From Rhizaria sp. SCN 62-66 (lineage: Eukaryota), in NCBI GenBank assembly GCA_001724265.1, contig MEDY01000310.1, positions 1 through 37,296 of the forward strand: 37,296 bases of DNA, in the 5' to 3' direction. The translations under genes and the position numbers were made by a program. Numbering within the stretch: position 1 is the first letter of the stretch; every line of letters begins with the position of its first letter. The notes beneath the pieces are model-generated. The model made no database searches. It had not been told where the DNA came from and was given only the letters and a program-made list of their open reading frames with translations. Shown here one piece after another: positions 1-36,912 of the stretch.

Positions 1-1272
1 GCTGCTGGATGAGGTCCACGTTGCGCCCGCGGACAAGTTCTCCAAGTGCGTGCGCGTGACGCACTCGCGCTGCAAGCTTGGGCTCACGGCCACGCTTGTG
101 CGCGAAGATAGCAAGATCGAGGACTTGTACTTTATGCTGGGTCCGAAGCTCTACGAGGCCAACTGGAAAAACCTCAGCACGCAGGGCTTCATCGCGACGG
201 TGATGTGCCGCGAGGTGTGGTGCCCCATGTCGCCGCTCTTCTTCCGCGAGTACCTTGGTGCCGACACGCACAAGAAGCTGCTGCTAATGACGCTAAACCC
301 GGAGAAGTTGATGGCCATGGAGGTCCTCATGCGCGCGCACGAGCGTCGCGGCGACAAGATCATGATCTTCTGCGAGTCAATCGTTGCGCTGCAGCTGCTG
401 GCAAAACGGTTCAAGCGGCACTTTATTGACGGCACCGTGGCCGACCAGGAGCGCGTTGAGATCTTCCGCGAGTTCTCTTCCAACAATGGGCTCAACACTA
501 TCTTTATCTCCAAGGTCGGTGACAACTCGATCGACCTGCCCGACACCAACGTCATCATCCAGCTCTCCGCGCACTTCGGCTCGCGTAGGCAGGAGGCGCA
601 GCGCTTCTGATGTTTCGCTGTTCTTCAAAATTTGGCATTGTAATGTTCAACAAAGTATCATGTTTGTCCAAGTGTGTGTTGAACTCTCCAGTCTGACATT
701 ATTCACAAATCACATCATCACAGTTTTCTTCTTACTCCATCCCCTTGCTTTCTTGTTTTCTCCTCCGCCTCACAGGCCGCATTTTACGCCCGAAGTCTAA
801 GAAGTCAGGCACAATTGACGCGTACTTTTACTCGCTTATTTCGACCGACACGAGCGAGGTCAAGTACGCGACCAAGCGCCAGCGCTTTCTGGTCGACCAA
901 GGCTACGAGTACGAGGTGATGCTCAAGTCCGAGCTCGACCACTAGGAGCGCGCCGCTATCGTGAAGGAGCCGCTCATCCTCTCGAAGCCTGAAGACCAGC
1001 GCATGCTTTTGCTCGAGATCCGCGAGCATCAGGGCCCCACGGGCGCCTACGACCTGAGCGAGATGGCCGTCTTCGAAGCCACCGCCTCGCGCGGCTTCTA
1101 GTCCCGCCCCAGCGTCGCCGCCCCCACAAGCACAGCCACTCACACCGGTACTGGTGCTGGTGCTGGTGCTGGTACTGGCGCGGACGGCGCAGAGGAGGAG
1201 ACAAGCGAAGCCATGCTGGCCAGTCTCACCGGCGCTCGCGGCGGCGGCGAGCGCATCTTCAGGGAATACTGA
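1..1272 (+). CDS. ERCC3: TFIIH helicase/translocase XPB (Ssl2/Rad25), 5' partial; exons <1..~607 and 776..1272; two in-frame TAG codons (943-945, 1099-1101)
   Basis: The frame from base 2 reads LLDEVHVAPA (motif II), LGLTATLVRED (motif III), GPKLYEANW, SKVGDNSIDLP and HFGSRRQEAQR. After a pyrimidine tract and CAG at 775 it reads RILRPK...AYFYSLISTDTSEV...RQRFLVDQGY. Reading through two TAGs gives an XPB-like C-terminus (EDQRMLLLEI...MLASLTGA...IFREY) ending at TGA 1270-1272. The intron donor near 607 is not canonical. Confidence 0.95.
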
Positions 1273-7668: not shown

Positions 7669-9228
7669 TCAGTACCACTGCTTGCGCTGGGTCTCGCGCT
7701 GAGGCGGGAGGGCGTCGACGCGCTCGCCGCCCTTGAAGACGGCGGCGACGGGCGAGGCGCCCATCTGGTACACGACGTGTTCCCACTGCTCCGTGCCCAG
7801 CACCACAAAGTCGCCGCGCTTGCCGGGCGCAAGCGAGCCGTGAGAGCCGGCCTTGCCGAGCGCGTAGGCGGCGTTGAGCGTGGCGGCGACGAGCGCCTCG
7901 CCGCAAGTCATGTGCATGAGCACGCAGGCCATGTTCATCACCAGCGGCAGCGCGATGCAGTACGCGTTCGGGTTGAAGTCGCTGCCCAGCGCAACGGGCA
8001 CGCCCGCCGTGATCATCGCGCGCGCGGGGGGCGGGTGCAGGCGCAGTACGTAGGCCGTGGTGGGCAACAGCACGGCCGCGACCTTGGCCGCGGCCATGGC
8101 GGCGATGCCCGCGTCCGTCACGCACTCCAGGTGCGACACGGCGCGTGCGCCCACGGCCGCCGCCATCTCGGCCGAGTGCGTCACCGAGAGCTCGTCGCCG
8201 TGGAAGTTCGCCTGCAGGCCCAGCGCGCGGCCCGCCTCGAGGATGCGGCGCGCCTAGACAGAGCGAGAGAAAAGAAAGAGAAAAAAGGAATGATAAAGTT
8301 CATGCATGAGTGAATTTTTGACAATACAAAAATAAAATGACACGAAACAGCTAAAATCGTATTGCTGTTAAGCTATAGCTTGATAGCGTCTGATATGTGT
8401 AGACATATCTATGGCCCGTACCTGGTCGACGTTGAAGACGCCCGACTCGCAGAAGACGTCGATCTGCTCGGGGTCAATCTCGCCGGCCGCGGCAGCCGCG
8501 GCGAGGCGCGGGAGCTGCACGCTGACCACGTCCTCAGTCGCCGCCTCAGCCGTGGAGCCCTTGGGGACGGAGTGCGCGCCGCAATAGTTGGCCACCAGCT
8601 CGATGGGCTGCAGCGCCTTGGCGCGCTTGATCACGCGTAGCATCTTGAGCTCCGCCTCGGCCTCCAGCCCGTAGCCACTCTTGGCCTCGAGCAGCGTCGT
8701 CCCGGCGGCCAGCGCGCGCGCGAGGCGGCCCAGCAGCGCGTCGAGCAGCTCGTCCTCCGAGGCGGCGCGCGTGTGGGCCACTGTGAAGCCGATGCCGCCG
8801 CCCATGGCGTGGATGTCCATGTACTTGGCGCCCGCAAGCTTAAGGCGGAACTCACCGACGCGGTCGCCCGCCCAGACGGGGTGGGTGTGCGCGTCGACGA
8901 GCCCCGGGATGACGGACTGGCCGGGGAACGCGTGGTCGTGCTCGGGTGCGAAGGGGAACTTGGCCAGCTCGGCCGGCAGCTCGGCCGCGGGGCCCGCGTA
9001 CAGGATCGAGCCGCGGTCGCCAATAATCAGCGCGCCGTCGGACACGCAGTCGACGTCGTCCTGCGCCGTGCCCGTCTTGAACTCGACGGCGCGGTCGCGG
9101 GAGATGCACACGAGGCGCGAGGCAGTCACGCGCACGCGAGGCTGCTCGGGCTGCTCCGACTGCGCGGGCTTGGTCTGCGCCGCCGAGGGGCAGCAGGCGG
9201 GGGTGCCGGCGTGAGGCGCGCACGACAT
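7669..9228 (-). CDS. AMDHD1: Imidazolonepropionase (histidine catabolism, HutI family, eukaryote type); exons 9228..8422 and 8253..7669
   Basis: Motifs PGLVDAHTHPVWAGDR, GGGIGFTV, EAKSGYGL, GAHSVP, DVFCESGVF, FHGDEL, SHLE and ALGSDFNPNAYC. GTACGG...TAG intron 8421..8254 in phase 0. Stop TGA. Confidence 0.95.
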
Positions 9229-9712
9229 CAGAGTGGCAGGGCTATGGAAGTGCGGGAAGGTGGGCAGCGACGGGGTGATATAGGGAGAGTGAGGGGCAAA
9301 CGTCATCAGCAAGATCCAAGCATTTCGAGAACTTGACGCGCATGGAAGATCGACGACTGTGGAATGGTTAAAACAAATACAAACTTAAAACATTGTAAAA
9401 AGATCCAGAAATAACTGAAAAACGCAACTGACGACAATACAGCCGCCATGTCTGCGTTTGTTTAACCCTTGGACTCGACCATCATTGTGATCGTCTGGGC
9501 TCGGTCGGTCCAGTCGATCACAGGCCTAGGACCGTGGGGTACAGCGAAGCTCTCGACGCAGTCTTCGCACATTGCGAAATTCGTCTTGGTTTATCGTTTA
9601 GTGTTTCTTTCGTTTGCATTTCGGAATTTTACGCTCTCTTTTTTACGTGCTCATTTAATACTTTCCCGCGTCGCGTCTATATTACCTTTTGTATTCCGCC
9701 TTGCAGAGACGC

Positions 9713-15029: not shown

Positions 15030-17786
15030 ATGCAGGACCTGAGCAAGCGCGACGACCTGCTCCACAAGGAGGAGCAGATCCTCCTGCGCGTCCCGCACGA
15101 CCTCTCGGTGACGCTCGAGATGTGGCTCAACGACCACACGCGCAGCCAGGAGGACAAGTTCCGCGTCGAAATCTTTGCCGACGGCACGGGCGTGCTGCAC
15201 GTCGGCAAGGACGTGTACCGCGCGAAGCTGGCGAACCTGCCCACGATCGTCGAGTCGCACCGCACCTACGACGGCGCGCTCTTTTACAAGTCGGCCGACA
15301 TCAACCAGGTGCTCATCGTCGAGGGCGGCGAGAAGGCAGACGTCGAGCTCTACAAGGCCGATGTCAAGAGCCTCCACGACGCCGCGGCGGGCAGCGCGGC
15401 CTCTGCCTCTGCCGTTGCCTCGTCCTCGGCCGCAGCCGCGGCCCTGGCCACGGGCGACCTGCCCTTCGCGCTCATGGTGACGGAGTTCCCTGACGGGCCC
15501 GCGCTGCTCGACCACGGGCTCACCATCGCCGCAAGGAACATCCGCCCCGCGCGCTTTAACCGGCCCGTGGAGCCGCCGCAGCCCGTGCTGCGCGAGGCGC
15601 TAGACCGGCTCGCGCTCATCGACCCGCACGGCCAAACGGTGCGTCCTCAATCCTGCTTGCTTGAAGTGGAGATTTAACATGCGAAACAGTATATGTTGTG
15701 AACATTAATATGCTGTTGAAATGTAACTATTTGATGCCTATTATTATATGTACTCTCTTAAAGTCATTTATTTGTTCTATAACTGACGAACTAATTTGGC
15801 GATATATCTTTGTTTTGTGTTATTATAACTTAGGACCACTGCATCTACGAGTACGACATCGTGCCCGCGTCCGAGGCCAAGCGCTTCCTCAAAGAGGAGC
15901 GCGCGCGCAACCGCAACTCGGACCTGGTTGTGCATAGCGACGACGACAGCGACGACGACGACGACGACGAAGACGGCAACGGCAGCGGCCGCCGGAAAGG
16001 CCGCGGCCGCGGTCGCGGCGACGACGACGACGACGACGACGACGAGGCGCACGAAATCCCGCTCGCGATGCAGGGCCAGGTTTTCCGCCGCCAGATCCCT
16101 GCCGCAGGCGCGGGCGCGGGCGCCATCTCCATCCCCGTCTCCACCGGCGTCGTTAGTGCCGGTGCAAGGGGGAACCGCCCCCCGCAGCAGCAGCAGTCGA
16201 GCGGAATGCTCTCGCTCTCGTTCAACTCCTCCGCGCTGCCCGCGGCCGCGCCCTCCGCCGGCGCCAGCTCCGGCGCATTTACCTTACGCATCGGCGCTAT
16301 CGGCGGCGGCTCATCATCTTCATCGTCATCAAGCTCCAACCCCAACGTCACTGCGTCCGGCTCTGCCGGCGGCGGCGGCGGCGGCGGCGGCTACCCGGCC
16401 TTCGGCTCCCTCGCCTCGCCCCCCACGAGCGCCGGCATGGGCAACAACAGCGGCGGCGGCGGCAGTGGCGGCGCGCTGCACCTGGGCTTCCACTCGGCGA
16501 CGTCAGCGCTTCCCGCCGGCGCGGCCTCCGGTGGCGGCGCCAACTCACTCGCCCTCAGCGGCGGCGTCTCAGGCTCGGGCTTTGGCGCGGGCGCGGGCGC
16601 GGGTCTGGGGTTCGGCTTCGGGCTCGGCGGCGGCGCCACCCCGGCCCCCGCGCCCCCCGGCGTCATCAACTTCACTGCTTCCGGCCCTGGCGGCACAGTC
16701 AGCTCTGGCGCCGGCGCCGGCTCTGCGATGGGCATTGGCGTGGGGGCGGCCTCCACCGATATCTTCGCGCGCCCCCGCTCATCGGCGCCTGGCGCGCGCA
16801 GCGGCGGCCGCCGCGGGACCGGCGGGCTCAGCGGCGCCGGCGGCGGCCTCGGCGCCGGCTCGAGCAAGGGCGGCGCGGGGGGTAGGACGCCGCTGCCGGC
16901 GGGCGGGCTGGGCTTCGGCTTCGCGGCGACCCCGCCCATGGACGCGGGCGGCGCCGTGGGCAGCCGCTCCGGCGGCAGGGGCGGCCCGGACGCCAGCGGC
17001 GGAGGCGGCGGCGGCGGCGGGATGGGCGACCGGGGTTGGGAGGACGGCCACCGGACGCCGCAGTTTACCCTTAACCTCGCTGGCGCGCCAAACAACAACA
17101 ACGCCGCCGTGGACAACGCCAACAACGCTAGTAATAAGCCGGTGCGCGGCGCGACGCCCCCGCCGACCTTCACCATGTCGGATGAAGCGCCCCCAGATAG
17201 CCTGACCGCCGCTGCGGCGGAGGGCGGCGGCCTGACTTTGGGCGCGCTCGCCGGCGGCGGCCTAACTTTGGGCGCCGTGGCCGCGAGCGTGGGCGGGTCC
17301 GACTCGGCCGCGGCGGCCACAATGGCCGCGCTGACCTCGGCCGCGGCCGCGGCAGCGCCCTCGGCGGCCTCCGCGGCCGCCGCGGCAGCGGCCGCGGCAG
17401 CGGCTGAGGCCGACGCCAGCACCGGCGCTGACGCTGGCGCTGGCGCTGGCTTTGGTAGCCCTGTCACTGCTGCCCCTGCTGCAGCAGCTGCGCCCGCGCC
17501 CGCGCCTGCTGCGGAGCCCGCCGCACCCGCAGCGCCCGATGCGCCTGCTGCGCCTGCGATGCCCGCGCCGATGCCAGTCGCGGTCAAGCCCCCCGCGGTT
17601 GTGGCGGCCGAGGCCGAGGTCGCGGCGGCGCAGGAGGCCATCGTGAAGTGCAACGCGGTTATCGCGGCGCCCAAGAACAAGATCTTCCTTAAGCGCGCGG
17701 AGACCGAGCTTGTCGCGGCGCAGACGGCGCTGGCCGCTGCGGAAGCCAAGCTGGCGGCCGCCATTGCAGCCGCGGGCGCACAGTGA
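15030..17786 (+). CDS. TAF7: TFIID subunit TAF7 (TAFII55 N-terminal domain) with long low-complexity C-terminal region; exons 15030..15638 and 15834..17786
   Basis: Motifs EEQILLRVP, AKLANLPTIVESHRTYD...FYKSADINQVLIV and HGLTIAARNIRPARF. The C-terminal helix PKNKIFLKRAETEL resembles the Taf7 coiled coil. Phase-0 GTGCGT...TAG intron. Stop TGA. Confidence 0.9.
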
Positions 17787-27711: not shown

Positions 27712-30700
27712 TCACTCGGAGTCGTCGGAGTTGGTGCTCGAGTCCCACTCGCCACTGGGCTCCTCGTCGCTCTCGTGCTCCTCCTCAGCCTCCTCGGCGG
27801 CGTCCTCGGCGGCCTTGGCCTCGGCGTCAGTAGCACCCGCGGCGGCGGCGGCGGCGGCGGCGGCAGCAGCCTGCTTGCGCGCGATGCGCTCACGGCGCGC
27901 GAGCTTGCGCTTGACGGAGCCGGAGGAGAAGGCCGACTTGAAGCCCGTCTGCTGGTCAAGCTCGCGCGCGCGGGCCGCAATCTCGGGCTTGGCCTCGTCA
28001 AGCGCGGCGAGCCAGCGCGCCGCCATGTGCTTGCGGCGGCCGCGCGTGAGCGGCCACACATCGTCGAAGTTGGACTCGTTGACGTAGTTCTGCGTGATGG
28101 CAAGCGTGTCATCGAAGTTCCACACAGCGTGCCACCAGTTGCCCGGCACGAAGATGGTCTCGCCGGGGTAGTGCACGGCCTCGTACATGACGTAGTCGGC
28201 GCCCGCCGCGTTGGCCGACGCGATGTACTCGCGCAGCCGCGGCAGGATGTGCGTGAACCAGCCCTGTGGCGACGTCCAGGGGGACGGACCCTCGCCCTTG
28301 TACCGGTGCTCAAAGGCCGAGCCGTTGGCGATAGACGCGGGCACGTTGGGCGAGAGCAGCAGCCAGTACTTGCGGCCGTGCAGCAGCGCGTTCCACGCGT
28401 TGGTGTTGAGCGGGTCCTTGTGCATGAAGGAGCCCGAGCCCTGTGCGCCGATGCACAGCCAGCGCTGCGGCGGACGGCGCGAGAAGGCCACGTGGTCGAG
28501 GAAGTCGGTGGTGAAGAAGTGGGGGCGGGTGTAGTCCTGCTGCATCTCGGTCGCCACGTCGATCACCTCGAGCTGCGACTCAAACAGGTACAGTGGCTGG
28601 TCGTCGCGCTCCGTGTACAAGTACTGCATGAAGTGCTTGAGCTTGGCAGTCAGGCGGTACTCCTGGGGGTCCTTGCCGACCTTGAGGCGGCAGTTCTTGT
28701 ACTTGCCCGTGGACAGCGTGGTGCCCGTGTACTTGTGCATCTCCCAGCCCTCGGTCATGCCCGAGATGAGGCACGGCAGCAGCGCGCGCTCATACGCCGC
28801 CTGGAACTCGCCGTACGACATGTCCTTGTAGTTGAAGCGCGGGATGGGACGGAAGCGCGAGAAGTCCACCGGCGTAATCTCCTTGCTGCGGCCGCGCGGC
28901 ACCGACGCCACAGCGGGCAGCGCCGCGTCGGGCTTGAGCTGCGCCAGCGCCGAGTAGGCCGCCGAGGACTTGGGGAAGACGTAGACGGCCTCGCCGCCCA
29001 TGGGCGTGGCCAGCCCCTGGAGCGCGGCAAAAGCCTCAGGCAGCAGCACCTGCTTGAGCCCCGCGGCGGGCGTCGCGTCCACGGGCCGCGTCACATGCGC
29101 GTCGCCCACGAACGGGTTCACGGGCGCGTCCAGCGGGCCCGCGGCGACGGCGCTGCCCGGCGCGACGCGGCAGTGCGCGGCTTCGACCAACGCGCCCCAG
29201 CGCGCCAGCGCAGCGCGCAGCAGCGGGATCTCGGAGGCGTATGAGAACTTGTCCCAGTCCTTGAGGCCCCAGCGCGGCTCCTTCTTGCGGCGCAGCACGT
29301 TGAAGATGGCGTCGATGTCGCTCTGCTTCGACTGCGGCACGTAATCGCGCAGGAAGGTCCCGTACACGGCGTCGCGCACGGACCCAGGCTGAATAGACGC
29401 GTTTTCAGACTGCACCTCACTTGCGCGGGCGGCGGCGTCGCTGCTCCCCTATGTGTCTGAGTCGGCCTCGGCCGCGGCGGCAGCGGCGGCCGCGGCCTTG
29501 GACTTGGCGGCGTCGGCGGCGTCGACGTCGTCGTCGCTCTACTCGTCGTCGGAAGACGCGTCCGAGTCGGTGGAGCTGTCCTCGTTGCCCGAGAAGCCCT
29601 CCCAGCCCTCGTACGCGAAGGGCTTTTTCTCCGGCTCCGCCGCCCAGTCGCCGTGGTTCAGCGGGTGGTTGCGCGCGCGCTCCTCAGCCGCGGCGCGCTC
29701 CTCGGGCGACATGAGCTCCAGCGGCTTGACTTTTTTGCCGCTCGCGTCGAGGTGCGGGCGCACGAACTTCCACACGAAGCCGTCCTTGGCGTTCATCGCG
29801 TGCGCGGCCGCGGCGGCCTTGGGGAAGCGCTTCTCGAGCATCTTGAGCCAGCGCCAGGCCATGTGCTTGCGCTCGACGCGGATGTCGCGCCACACAAGGG
29901 GGAAGTTGCTCATGTTGACGTAGTTTTGCGTCACGGCGTAGGTGTCGTCGAGGTTGATGACGAAGTGCCACCACGAGCCGGGCACGAAGATGGTCTCGCC
30001 GGGGTACTGGATGAACTCCTGCAGCCCGTACTTGTTCCCGTTGGCCATGATCCACGCGCGCAGCTTCGGGTACACGCGGTCGTACCACCCCACGCCCTCG
30101 TTCTCGATGTCGGGGTCGAGGTCCTCGTCGGCCCAGAACTGCTTGCCCTTGACGATCGCCTCGGGTGTCTCGGGCGGGAACAGGATCCACACCTTGCGGC
30201 CGGCGATGACGGTGTTCCACGCGTTGGTGTTGAGCGGGTCGATGTGCATCGTCGTGCCAGAGCGCTCGGGGCCCAGGCACAGCCAGCGGTGCGGCGGGCG
30301 CCGCTCTGCGCTGCAGTAGTCGAACAGGTCCTTGGAGAACCACGCGGGGCGCGCGTACTCGGCGAAGATCTTGCGGATGTTGGAGTTGGCGTTGAGCTGC
30401 GACTCGAAGAGGTAGACGGGCGAGTCGTCCTTCTGCGTCGCCGCGTACTGCAGGTAGTACTTGGTCTCGAGCCCGATGCGGTAGCCCTCGTCGTCCTTGC
30501 CCACCTTGACGCGCTCGTCGCGCAGGAACGACTGGTTCATCGTCGCGAAGGTCGCCTTATTGATGGGCCACTCGTCGGCGAAGCCGGCGATTAGGCAAGG
30601 CTTGGACGGCTTCTCGTACTTCTCCACGAACCACTCGTACGAGACGTCGCGGAAGTCGAAGCGGTCGACGCCCATAACGCCGTGGTAAGTCGAGCCGGCG

Positions 30701-31026
30701 ACGTGGCACGCCTCGATCTCGTGCAGCACCTTAAGCCACTCGGCGCGCTTGTTGCGGAACGTCTTGACGTAGCCGTACTTGTGCCAGTCAGAGGGGCGCA
30801 TCGAGGACTTGCGGCGCTTGACATCGAGCAACTTGGCCTCCACCACCTCGGGGTCCTGGTCCGGCACGTAGTCGCCCTTGAGCGTGTCGTAGTGGCCGTC
30901 CTTGTCGGGGAAGCGGTGCGGGAAGTCGGCCGGGTTGAGGGCCGCGTTGCGCGCCTTGAGCTTGGCGACGAGCTCCTCGCGCGAGTGCGTCTCGCCCGTG
31001 GTCAGCTCGTACGGGTCGTAGGACAT
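27712..31026 (-). CDS. JMJD6-like JmjC oxygenase with two tandem JmjC modules in one frame (1104 codons if TAG at 29539-29541 and 29449-29451 is read as sense)
   Basis: ORFs 29539..31026 and 27712..29415 are each JMJD6-like (VKVGKDDEG / LKVGKDPQE; DDSPVYLFES; RRPPHRW; SGTTMHIDPLNTNAWN / SGSFMHKDPLNTNAWN; PGETIFVPGxWWH; xTQNYVN). They share a frame and are separated by 123 nt of GC3-biased codons. The second ORF has no ATG before its conserved N-terminus. Final stop TGA. Confidence 0.85.
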
Positions 31027-31854: not shown

Positions 31855-34800
31855 ATGGATGCATATGGCGTTCCTGCCCTCCAGTTTGGTACGTTTTTAT
31901 CGAGAACCCCGACGCTCTTTACTTTGAAATGCATTGCCAAGTGCTCCCAGCTTACCATTCGACCTTCTTATGCTCCCACTTCTCTATCCACATGCAGGCC
32001 GCTTTGATCTGCGCCTGACTGGTACTGTAAAGACTGGCGCGCTGATGGTTCTCCCGTCTAGCAAGCGCTCCAAGCGCCAGAAGTTTCTCTATGGCGACGG
32101 CGCGGGCTCACTGGGCTGCTACGTGATGAGCGACACGGACAACCAGATGACTGAGCTGTGGAAGCTTCCCCTGGCCGGGAACAAGCCCGCGACGTCCCTC
32201 GCACTCGGCGGCCTGCGCGACCCGAAGGACCAGGTTTACGTCTCGAGCGAGAAGACCATCACGGGCGTGAAGAAGACCGGCAAGGAGTTTTTCCGCTTCC
32301 CGACGTTACTGTTGACTGCGATCACGCAGCTGCGCGTGCACAACATGTCGCTCTTCGCCGTCACCGAGTGCACCTACACGCGCTTCACCGAGACCAAGGA
32401 GTCCGAGGTCTTTACCGCCAGCGACCGCATTACTGTTCTGCAGCCGCTAGTGGGCCGCTACGTGCGTCCCGCGGCGAACCCGGCCGCCCAGGCGACGGTG
32501 TTCCCGCAGGTGCGGCTCTACCCCTCGGTGCTCAGCACGCCCGAGTCGCTCGCGCCCACCGTCCTGCTCGCCACGGCGGACCGCTACGTGTACATGGTGC
32601 GCGAGGGCAGGGCGCTGGCGCAGGCGCGGCTGCCCGCGGCCGCGGCGTGCGTGTGCGAGGTGCCTGCGCCCGCGGGCGTGGTTCCAGGCCCCCGCGACGG
32701 GGCCGGCAAGGAGGACACAGACGCCTCGCAGACCACGCGCTACATCGTCTTCGGTAAGCTTTTTTTCTTTGATAATAGTCGCTTTGTTATTATATTTTAA
32801 GCTCTTGTTTTGTATTTTGCTGATTTTGCTGATCGTTCTGCTTCTCTTCCTTCGTCGTTCACTGTTTCTGCTGTTCTCTCTCTCGCAGGCACGACCGAGG
32901 GCCACCTGGGCCTGCTCGTCGCCGACGTCGCCGCGGGCACCCTCACAGTGGGCCCCGTGGTGTTCCTGCACCGACCCACGGCGGCGGCGCTGAGCTCCGC
33001 CGCCGCGCGCTCCGCGGACGCCGTCTTTGACAGCCTCGTCGCGCTCAACGCAGACGCCGACCCCGGCGCTGACGAACGCGGCAAACCCCGTTCACACCGT
33101 CACGGCGGCGCCACCACCAGCAGCGGCGGCAGTGGCGCGGGCGCGGGTGTAGGCCGCACTGCCGAGTCCCTGACGGACGCCATCACGGGACTCGCGGTGG
33201 CCGACATCACCGACGCGGCCAGCGCGCTGGAGCTCGTGGTTGCGACCGCGAGCGGCGTCATCCAGGTGCTCTCGCTGTCGCCGCAGACGGCGTTCGTGGC
33301 CACCGTTGAGGCCGACGCCAGGGTTACCGCGGCCGCCGAGACTAACAGCGCAGACGCCGTCTCTGCCGCTGCGGCCGCTACTGCCTGTGGCTCCGCGTCC
33401 GTGCTCGCGATCGCGCCGACCTCGGTGCTGTGGCATCGCGCGCTCAACGACCGCGTGACCAACGTCGCCGTGGGCTGTCTGTATGCGCGCGAGCGCCACG
33501 ACATCCTCGTCACGACCTTCTCCGGCAAGCTTCTGCTGTTTTCCACCGACGCTGACTCGAGCGTGGCCAGCCTGCGCGAGGCCGCCAAGGTCGCGCTGGC
33601 CGCCGCCAAGGCCAAGACCAAGGCCAAGATGGCGAGCGACCTGGCGGCGGGCGAGCTGCGCGGCAGCGGCGGCGGGATCGGCTTCGGGATGATGACCCGT
33701 GCGGAGGAAGCCGAGTGGATGGACCAGTACTGCTTCGACACGCTGCGCAGCGACATCGGCTCGCTCAAGCAGATGATCGCTGAGAAGCGCGAGCAGTTTG
33801 CGCGCGCCAATGAGGCCGGGCTCGTCGCCTTTAACACGCCGTTGAACCTGCGCGCGACGCTGACACTCAACGCCGACGCGGGCGTGCACGTGCTCGCCGT
33901 CGAGTCGGAGCTCGTGCTCGACTCGCTCTACATCTACAGCACCGCCAGTGTTTCGTGCACGCCCACGACGACCGCGCCGGAGATGCTGCTGTCGCACACG
34001 CCCGTGCCCACGCAGGGCGGCGGCAGCGGCGCCGCCGTGGGCGGGGCGGGCGCTGCCGGCGCCGCGGGCGGCGGCAACGCGGCGGGCGGCGGCGGCAGCA
34101 GCAGCAGCGCCGGCGGCGGCAACGCGGCCCCGCAGCTGCTGCTGACGGTGAAGCTGGCCCCCAACACGCAGCGCTTTGAGGCGCACGTGCGGACGCTGGA
34201 GCGCGCGGGCGCGGCGGGCGAGCTCACGGTCATGGTGATGCCCAAGATGGAGCCCAAGCGCTCGCAGCGCTTCACGTTCCCCGTGCTCCCGCTTTCGCTG
34301 CACGCGCCGCTCGCGGACCCGGCGACCGGGGAGCCCGTCACGGGCCTCGCCGCGGCCAGCAACGGCGCCAGCGCCAGTGCCAACGCCGGCGCCAGCGCGG
34401 GCGTGAGCACAAGCGCGGTGCTGCTAGCGCCGGCCGTGGAGGCGCGCTTCACCACGGGCCGCGTGAACGTGCTCAGCGTCACTGGCGCGACGCTGTCGAC
34501 GACGCTCACGCACCGCTGGCTGCGCGGGCTGCTTCCGGGCCTGCCCGCCACGCCCGTCTTCGTTGACACCGCGGCCGCGGCGCTCGTCGACGGACGCAAG
34601 CCGATCGCGATGCTGCCGCCCGCGACGCCGCTCTCGGTCGCGGGACTTGTTGACCCCGCGTGCGCGTTCTACCAGGCCACGGACGTGCCTACCGTGCTCG
34701 GTGTCATTTACGGCGCAGGCAAGGCTGTCTTCGTTAGGTATGCTTACAACATTTTGAACAAGAATTTATCGTGTCTATCTTGCTTCAATCATAACCCCTT

Positions 34801-36067: not shown

Positions 36068-36140
36068 GCCGTCGTAACTCAGTCGGTAGAGTGTTCGGCT
36101 CTTAACCGATTAGCCGCGGGTTCGAGCCCCGCCGGTGGCT
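36068..36140 (+). tRNA. tRNA-Lys (anticodon CTT)
   Basis: 73-nt cloverleaf: acceptor GCCGTCG/CGGTGGC, D-arm ACTC/GAGT, anticodon loop CTCTTAA, T-loop TTCGAGC, followed by a T-run (Pol III terminator). Confidence 0.95.
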
Positions 36141-36205
36141 TTCTTTTTTTGCTTCTTTTCTCAAACGTAAGCAAGTTGTACAAGCATGTACAACAAGCAC
36201 TCCAG

Positions 36206-36278
36206 GTGGCTTTAGCTCAGATGGTAGAGTATGCGCTTAGCATGCGCGGGGCAGGGGGATCAATGCCCCCAAGCTACA
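36206..36278 (+). tRNA. tRNA-Ala (anticodon AGC)
   Basis: Acceptor GTGGCTT/AAGCTAC with G3:U70 and A73, loop TTAGCAT, eukaryotic Ala-type T-loop ATCAATG, downstream T-run. Confidence 0.93.
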
Positions 36279-36342
36279 CATATCTTTTTGTTCGTGCTTG
36301 TTCTGTCACGTAACGAAGTGCAACAACGACGCAATTTGGCAG

Positions 36343-36415
36343 GCCGTCGTAACTCAGTCGGTAGAGTGTTCGGCTCTTAACCGATTAGCCGCGGGTTCGA
36401 GCCCCGCCGGTGGCT
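36343..36415 (+). tRNA. tRNA-Lys (CTT), identical copy
   Basis: Same 73-nt sequence as 36068..36140, followed by a T-run. Confidence 0.95.
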
Positions 36416-36507
36416 CTCTTTTTTGTGTAAGTTCGTTCTGCTCTTACGCTTGTTCGACGAACAAGAACGACAGCGTCAAGTTGTTGATCGAGTTAGTTAA
36501 CAGCAAC

Positions 36508-36580
36508 GTGGCTTTAGCTCATATGGTAGAGTGCGTGCTTTGCAAGCATGAGGCAAGGGGATCGATGCCCCTAAGCTACA
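36508..36580 (+). tRNA. tRNA-Ala (anticodon TGC)
   Basis: Same acceptor stem with G3:U70, anticodon arm CGTGC-TTTGCAA-GCATG, T-loop ATCGATG, T-run. Confidence 0.93.
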
Positions 36581-36639
36581 CATCTCTTTTTGTTCATGTC
36601 ACTGATGTACTTGTTCCTGAGTGTAACACCCTGTCAGCA

Positions 36640-36712
36640 GCCGTCGTAACTCAGTCGGTAGAGTGTTCGGCTCTTAACCGATTAGCCGCGGGTTCGAGCC
36701 CCGCCGGTGGCT
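36640..36712 (+). tRNA. tRNA-Lys (CTT), identical copy
   Basis: Same 73-nt sequence, followed by a T-run. Confidence 0.95.
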
Positions 36713-36839
36713 CTCTTTTTGTTCATGCGTATTATGATGTGATTGCAAGCAACAAGTGGAAGCGTGTTCGATTCGATGTGACGTTCCAACCAAGGTCATG
36801 TCGAGGAGTCTACACGACAAAGCAGGTTGATTGACAGCA

Positions 36840-36912
36840 GTGGCTTTAGCTCAGATGGTAGAGTATGCGCTTAGCATGCGCGGGGCAGGGGGATCAATGC
36901 CCCCAAGCTACA
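36840..36912 (+). tRNA. tRNA-Ala (AGC), identical to 36206..36278
   Basis: Identical cloverleaf, T-run downstream. Confidence 0.93.

Follow-up and report, generated by a model that had tools for sequence, protein, structure and literature searches.

The genetic code in which UAG specifies glutamine while UAA and UGA are kept as stop codons is listed as NCBI translation table 15. According to two papers, this code is used by Iotanema spirale, in which UAG makes up about 8% of the glutamine codons (PMC5304391), and UAG also encodes glutamine in Protocruzia tuzeti and, on two occasions, in phyllopharyngean ciliates (PMC11687900). The same papers give UAG as a leucine codon in the rhizarian exLh (Sainouroidea), where it is found at conserved leucine positions (PMC5304391), and as a serine codon in Scotinosphaera (PMC11687900). 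Here we analyse a locus on contig MEDY01000310.1 of GenBank assembly GCA_001724265.1 (Rhizaria sp. SCN 62-66), of which the stretch of 37,296 nucleotides examined in full is referred to as the window. On its minus strand (31026..27712) the window carries two JMJD6-like open reading frames (ORFs) that are linked in frame by a short linker with a TAG codon at either end. The explanation that we regard as likely is that this locus is a single gene in an organism in which UAG has been reassigned to a sense codon, probably for glutamine, with UAA and UGA kept as stops. The original prediction for this locus had proposed UAG as a sense codon, and the proposal is supported by relatives in which the two ORFs are fused, by TAG codons in XPB, also in this window, at which a relative has glutamine, by the stop codon counts, by a coding linker without an ATG, and by an unspliced contig from an RNA library.

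Two JMJD6-like modules and the linker between them

The locus is organized as follows:

29542..31026, minus strand: module 1 (ORF1 in the ORF scan), 495 codons from the ATG at 31026 to a GAG at 29542, in which an N-terminal extension precedes the JMJD6-like JmjC/cupin domain (Pfam JmjC at about 29923-30285) and an acidic Ser/Asp tail follows it.
29539..29541, minus strand: the first TAG (TAG1), in the context GAG TAG AGC, within the acidic run.
29452..29538, minus strand: the linker, 29 sense codons, SDDDVDAADAAKSKAAAAAAAAAEADSDT.
29449..29451, minus strand: the second TAG (TAG2), in the context ACA TAG GGG.
27715..29448, minus strand: module 2 (ORF2), 578 codons, with JmjC at about 28087-28461 and an acidic tail that ends in ..SGEWDSSTNSDDSE.
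27712..27714, minus strand: the TGA that ends the whole 1,104-codon gene, at a C-terminus which is the same as the ends of the related proteins P0014 and P0120.

ORF1, TAG1, the linker, TAG2 and ORF2 lie in one common frame on the minus strand. A shared frame alone is expected by chance in one of three cases, and what takes the layout beyond chance is that the linker has homologues in relatives, where it is coding and uninterrupted. The ORF coordinates bear out the predicted arrangement of two JMJD6-like ORFs linked in frame with two TAG codons in between, and the acidic run does continue across TAG1 (DSDASSDDE-TAG-SDDDVD), at a position that matches the end of module 2, as had been suggested. 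Some details had to be corrected. The stretch between the TAG codons measures 87 nt (93 nt with both TAG codons) instead of 123 nt, the alanine run in the linker was counted at nine residues instead of eight, and the coordinate 29416, given as the start of the linker region, falls inside ORF2.

Both ORFs match the Pfam families JmjC (PF02373) and Cupin_8 (PF13621) above the curated cut-offs of 24 and 27.4 bits, with scores of 61.8 and 60.6 bits for module 1 and 44.8 and 42.4 bits for module 2. Module 1 aligns to residues 45-333 of human JMJD6 (E 1e-72) with the HxD..H metal triad in register, and its MHID and WWHFV motifs align with IHID and WWHVV of JMJD6. The corresponding motifs of module 2 are MHKD and WWHAV, and residues H869, D871 and H966 are invariant in an alignment of three sequences that includes the relatives P0120 and P0121. 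The HxD..H residues presumably bind Fe(II), a role that we take from the JMJD6 literature. By fold profile and HxD..H triad, both modules are JMJD6-like JmjC 2-oxoglutarate/Fe(II) oxygenases, of predicted activity. Human JMJD6 (PDB 6gdy, 6mev, 3k2o, 3ld8), a lysyl hydroxylase and disputed arginine demethylase, likewise combines the JmjC/Cupin_8 fold with the HxD..H triad; JMJD6 has one such module, whereas two complete modules are present in the single predicted polypeptide described here, and, unlike in JMJD6, each of them is flanked by a conserved N-terminal extension (120-190 residues) and by an acidic Ser/Asp tail.

Most of the homologues found in searches with the individual modules have a single module. 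The best named match of module 1 is a protein of the sainouroid rhizarian Guttulinopsis vulgaris (43% identity, full length). The proteins of G. vulgaris and of metagenomic relatives (P0010, P0005, P0006 and P0009) consist of a single module, begin with the common N-terminus M(A)YNPSADCGDE.H and end with an acidic tail. This shared N-terminus and acidic tail of the single-module orthologues suggests that tandem duplication and fusion gave rise to the two-module form in some of the lineages. The N-terminal extension of module 2 is paralogous to that of module 1. The double JMJD6-like architecture occurs in at least four lineages and is undescribed as far as our searches went, which did not include a literature search aimed at this architecture.

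The linker has a GC content of 0.77 and an in-frame GC content at third codon positions (GC3) of 0.90, compared to a GC content of 0.41-0.52 in six intergenic stretches, in agreement with the earlier observation that it is unlike intergenic DNA. Its codons (GAC, GCC, AAG) are typical of coding sequence. The second module was predicted to have no ATG of its own, and indeed ORF2 opens with 149 codons that include no in-frame ATG, the first one being codon 150 (29001), while the region between 29560 and 28990 contains just one further ATG, which is out of frame. ORF2 is 70% identical to P0014, a module-2 ORF of a near relative, including the part that precedes the first ATG, and codons 51-149 are conserved in comparison to P0014 (RRKKEPRWGLKDW.., NPFVGD..) and also to P0120 and P0121. 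Because codons 51-149 are conserved, the part of ORF2 before the first ATG is considered to be under constraint at the protein level, and the late ATG and the conserved codons upstream of it together indicate that translation must enter ORF2 from upstream.

When proteins of 607-1932 amino acids were searched with the fused translation, five matches were obtained, two of which cover both modules as one ORF. These two proteins, P0120 (1080 amino acids, 1118 bits, 52% identity) and P0121 (1078 amino acids, 1043 bits, 50% identity), align end to end with the fused translation. P0284 (575 amino acids) of the near relative is 78% identical, and its frame stays open from module 1 across the linker and reaches the N-terminus of module 2 (..APGSVRDPVYGTFLKDYVPQSKQ). 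The acidic/poly-Ala linkers of P0284 and of its shorter cluster-mate P0008 are homologous to the linker in the window. The open linker and the fused ORFs in relatives indicate that the two-module protein is ancestral and that the linker is coding sequence. It is therefore most likely that 31026..27712 is one gene for a double-domain enzyme.

The fused gene of the near relative is broken once, about 8 codons before RRKKEP in the N-terminal extension of module 2, at a site other than those of the TAG codons in the window. P0284 stops after ..SKQV, and P0014, which is also encoded on the 29,930-bp contig of this relative, begins about 8 codons later at VIRRKKEP. Scans of genome contigs and viral contigs with P0284 for the DNA of the relative gave no match.

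In the output of gene callers the locus appears as P0001 (495 amino acids) and P0015 (555 amino acids), which would correspond to two genes that arose by fission of the ancestral fused gene, ORF1 ending at TAG1 and ORF2 starting from Met150 or from a non-AUG codon. This split carries no independent weight because the gene callers used treat TAG as a stop. A fission would agree with the position of Met150 before the catalytic JmjC core, and also with P0002 and P0013, the module-1 and module-2 orthologues of a more distant and apparently AT-richer relative (5,962-bp contig, NCBI source), which are called as two proteins as well. It is at odds with the absence of an AT-rich spacer and the coding-type codon usage of the linker, with the conservation of the 149 codons before Met150 in P0014, P0120 and P0121, and with an RNA-library contig (see below) that reaches 63 nt upstream of TAG2, and it leaves the TAG codons in XPB unexplained. 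We consider two separate genes improbable.

TAG codons in XPB, codon counts and the reading of UAG

All 458 TAG trinucleotides of the window were scanned for coding-like flanks, and the XPB/ERCC3 gene stood out. The frame of XPB exon 2, which starts from about position 776 on the plus strand, closes at a TGA at 1270-1272 and contains two TAG codons:

943..945, plus strand: TAG in XPB, in the context ..SELDH TAG ERAAIV.., glutamine in P0125 and P0283.
1099..1101, plus strand: TAG in XPB, in the context ..ASRGF TAG SRPSV.., glutamine in P0125 and P0283.

Human XPB aligns across the TAG at 943-945 into the next helix. P0283 (172 amino acids) and P0125 (114 amino acids) represent an uninterrupted ORF of a close relative that matches exon 2 on either side of both TAG codons and ends at the same ..RIFREY as the XPB of the window. 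At both XPB TAG sites these proteins have glutamine (..ELDY-Q-ERAAIV.. and ..LRGS-Q-SRPG..), with conserved flanks and without gaps. The same data source that provided P0125 and P0283 also provided P0282 (66 amino acids, recorded from 4 contigs), which is the window's own XPB ORF cut at a TAG. Because this source treated TAG as a stop in P0282, the glutamines in P0125 and P0283 represent real glutamine codons.

In the intron that precedes XPB exon 2 (605-775, plus strand), the in-frame TGA at 608-610 cannot be avoided with any GT donor in a suitable phase. Only removal of 607..773 (CT..AC) restores the conserved helicase motif QRLGRILR; a strong pyrimidine tract and a CAG at 773-775 are present. 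Apart from this intron, the introns that we checked are canonical.

The 16 confident coding segments of the window comprise 6,863 codons without frameshifts. Within these, TAG occurs in frame four times, and TAA and TGA do not occur. CAG was counted 186 times and CAA 11 times, so that TAG accounts for about 2% of the putative glutamine codons. The ten clear gene ends in the window, with terminal exons taken from the DNA alone, use TGA (seven) or TAA (three) and in no case TAG.

A comparison to the code of I. spirale shows the same combination of in-frame UAG in conserved genes with homology continuing downstream (here four TAG codons in two genes) and of UAA and UGA as terminators. Glutamine faces UAG at both of the alignable sites (those in XPB), while the linker sites show D and A/T/D, and four sites do not suffice for inferring the residue formally. 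UAG would be a minor glutamine codon in both organisms, with about 2% of the glutamine codons here compared to about 8% in I. spirale (PMC5304391); a difference is that the evidence here consists of four codons on one contig and not of a transcriptome. With the rhizarian exLh the locus shares that UAG alone would be reassigned, and that the best named match of module 1 is from a sainouroid. In contrast to exLh, no TAG in the window is found at a hydrophobic or conserved site, and the relative has glutamine and not leucine at both XPB sites.

If UAG is read as glutamine, the gene product would be about 1,104 residues long and would combine two JMJD6-like 2-oxoglutarate/Fe(II) oxygenase modules with an acidic, Ala-rich and probably disordered linker, in which the residues around the two TAG codons would be ..SSDDE-Q-SDDD.. 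and ..DSDT-Q-GSSD... Such decoding would involve either a tRNA-Gln whose anticodon is CUA or a tRNA-Gln-CUG that reads UAG very efficiently as a near-cognate codon, together with an eRF1 that no longer recognises UAG, while UAA and UGA would still terminate. Under these assumptions we infer a full-length two-module protein.

A number of observations weigh against a reassignment of UAG to glutamine. The whole case for a code change comes from four TAG codons in two genes on one 37-kb contig, which is a small sample. At TAG1 the relatives P0284, P0120 and P0121 have D/D/D and at TAG2 A/T/D, and not glutamine. These low-complexity positions are barely alignable, with flanks that fail to align as well, so the TAG sites of the JmjC gene appear uninformative on the residue, but they do not lend support to glutamine either. 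All four in-frame TAG codons are located in variable, hydrophilic segments, in which a nonsense or readthrough codon would likewise do least harm, and TAG1 is found at the point where the single-module orthologues of Guttulinopsis and its metagenomic relatives end. The two separate protein calls in the more distant relative belong here as well. The lack of TAG at the ten terminators is weakly significant, with a chance of roughly 5-10% if TAG made up 20-25% of the stops. Finally, none of the six tRNA genes in the 37-kb window (Lys-CTT three times, Ala-AGC twice and Ala-TGC once) has the anticodon CUA, and a gene for eRF1 is absent from the window. These tRNA genes form an array at 36068-36912 on the plus strand, in which Lys(CTT) and Ala(AGC/TGC) alternate with starts about 100-200 nt apart.

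UAG could instead be leaky or ambiguous, with a near-cognate tRNA-Gln(CUG) or a weak suppressor giving a one-module protein up to TAG1 together with some two-module protein. Glutamine is the residue usually inserted at a leaky UAG. The position of TAG1, where both the single-module orthologues and module 2 terminate, would suit such a mechanism, as would the tolerant, variable segments that contain all four TAG codons and the low share of TAG among the putative glutamine codons, and partial termination at UAG may occur in this gene. As a general property of UAG in this organism it would mean that the essential helicase XPB loses its conserved C-terminal part at two successive TAG codons, and the absence of TAG at the ten gene ends does not fit either. 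The positions of the TAG codons are not conserved: the near relative has sense codons at all four sites and its own stop elsewhere. A stop at another place in the same gene fits a reassigned codon that drifts through the genome and not a conserved regulatory readthrough. The contexts TAG-AGC, TAG-GGG, TAG-GAG and TAG-TCC have no motif in common, none of the four has the C after TAG that readthrough motifs would need, and the RNA folds downstream are ordinary (z of -1.35 and -0.04 compared to shuffled sequences). We rate a leaky UAG as rather unlikely.

Programmed UAG/UGA readthrough in viruses and cells resembles the locus in that the open frame goes on, long and conserved, beyond an in-frame stop. 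It differs from the situation here, where the stop site is not conserved in the near relative, neither a known stimulatory context nor an exceptional downstream structure is present, and four sites, all of them TAG, are found in two unrelated genes. The possibility of a regulated double readthrough that yields one- and two-domain isoforms, put forward earlier, has become less well supported, given that the nearest relative has sense codons at both sites and that no known context or unusual fold was found. Pyrrolysine-type recoding is not known to occur in eukaryotic nuclei and was dropped on this ground.

Assemblies and RNA-library contigs across the TAG codons

The sequence of the locus was compared to independent assemblies and sequencing runs. 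A scan of metagenomes matched two contigs, both of the same organism (L001 and L002), of which the independent contig L002 is identical over ORF1, both TAG codons and the start of ORF2. The gene-caller product of ORF1 that ends at TAG1 (P0001) has been recorded from six contigs and that of ORF2 (P0015) from five. X4 and X5 are runs of a study separate from the assembly of the window. A contig of run X4 (29493-29845) bridges TAG1 without differences, and a 199-nt contig of run X5, a poly(A) RNA library, bridges TAG2 (29316-29514) without differences and without a joint. The X5 contig includes TAG2 and 63 nt of the linker, up to within 25 nt of TAG1, and is unspliced and unedited. Depth in X5 is zero in 7 of 30 bins, mostly intergenic ones, whereas X4, which is DNA-like, covers all 30. 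Because the gaps in depth are mostly found in intergenic bins, the X5 contig is probably derived from RNA, as judged from assembled contigs and not from reads. Runs X6 and X7 were flagged as probably DNA and were left out of the RNA evidence. Among the contigs listed, none from an RNA library covers TAG1, so that a single transcript across TAG1 is not established, and none of X5 covers a known intron, which leaves splicing without a positive control.

RNA editing of UAG was considered and is disfavoured for TAG2 only, by one contig with a depth of 3.3. Joints and loose ends of contigs at 29490-29497 and 34355-34402 were discarded as foreign or repeat artefacts; their sides are short (21-29 nt) and consist of GCC/poly-Ala repeats. 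These repeats, at 29363-29669 and 34275-34581, are matched by contigs of other organisms at 90% likeness, which produces spurious joints and peaks in depth of up to 440.

The X5 contig also bears on the possibility that both TAG codons are removed from the transcript by an in-frame intron of 102 nt, from GT (29542) to AG (29441), leaving ..SSDD-DDAAAR... Both dinucleotides are in place, and the length is divisible by three. With a GC content of 75%, GTAGAG as the donor and no polypyrimidine tract, the stretch departs from the introns that we checked, in which the donor is GTAAG or GTACG; in the two that were measured (168 and 135 nt) the GC content is 35-36% and AG comes after a pyrimidine tract. 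The X5 contig continues past the proposed acceptor and through 73 nt of this candidate intron, with no joint, and the homologous stretch is translated in P0284. Splicing of 29542..29441, which the original prediction had named as a competing explanation, is thus disfavoured by its donor and GC content, by the X5 contig and by P0284. Two more such atypical introns would be called for by the TAG codons in XPB, and we regard this intron as highly improbable.

An equally slight chance is given to the explanation that the TAG codons are recent nonsense mutations in a decaying gene or strain, or errors of assembly or sequencing. CAG to TAG is a common transition, and the glutamines of the relative at the XPB sites are encoded by CAG or CAA. 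Against this explanation, independent assemblies and runs show an identical sequence, and the four in-frame stops within the 6,863 codons are all TAG, none being TAA or TGA, and are not accompanied by frameshifts. In addition, ORF2 and the tail of XPB, which is essential, are intact and conserved past the TAG codons.

Host organism and gene content of the window

The window is a eukaryotic multi-gene contig with genes for XPB, an N-terminal glutamine amidase, a cytochrome-b5 protein, Notchless, TAF7, a TMC-domain protein, MCM5 and BBS7. The GC3 of coding sequences is about 0.8-0.95 across the genes of the window. At 7669-9384 on the minus strand there is a two-exon gene with a 168-nt intron, of which exon 1 alone gave no Pfam match; its motifs presumably resemble those of imidazolonepropionase or amidohydrolases. 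The region 15829-17786 on the plus strand has about 77% GC and three overlapping open frames of 242-650 codons without a Pfam match.

The runs that contain the stretch are labelled as bioreactor, wastewater or activated-sludge metagenomes, and in the DNA runs X1-X3 the contig is complete. Among the 10 of 150 listed matches of MCM5 that were looked up, the best named relatives are 48-50% identical and scattered over different supergroups (Corallochytrium, Chlorokybus, Dictyostelium and Rhodosorus), giving no rhizarian signal and no placement. The match of module 1 to Guttulinopsis (43%) may be taken as a lead only for the host lineage. With a multi-gene contig, a GC3 of about 0.9 and AT-rich introns of 135-168 nt, the host seems to resemble neither ciliates nor fornicates, as judged from these general features rather than from a phylogeny. 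It is possible, although we stop short of calling it probable, that the window derives from an undescribed lineage of wastewater or activated sludge, neither ciliate nor fornicate, in which UAG alone was independently reassigned to glutamine and is at an early stage of low usage (about 2% of the glutamine codons, at variable sites).

The organism is abundant enough in wastewater reactors to yield contigs of 37 kb. Standard gene callers cut its genes at every TAG, by which the 1,104-residue enzyme becomes two 'proteins' and XPB is reduced to fragments. Because of this, the proteome of the organism in public catalogues would be systematically fragmented. The host is apparently a further, unrelated lineage in which UAG has been decoupled from UAA and, if so, would provide an independent data point, in a GC-rich genome, on how this decoupling takes place. 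Together with its sister species, which has about 75-80% protein identity, CAG or CAA at the corresponding sites and an in-frame stop of its own in a different place, the host would then make it possible to follow in nature how a stop-to-sense reassignment spreads in a GC-rich genome.

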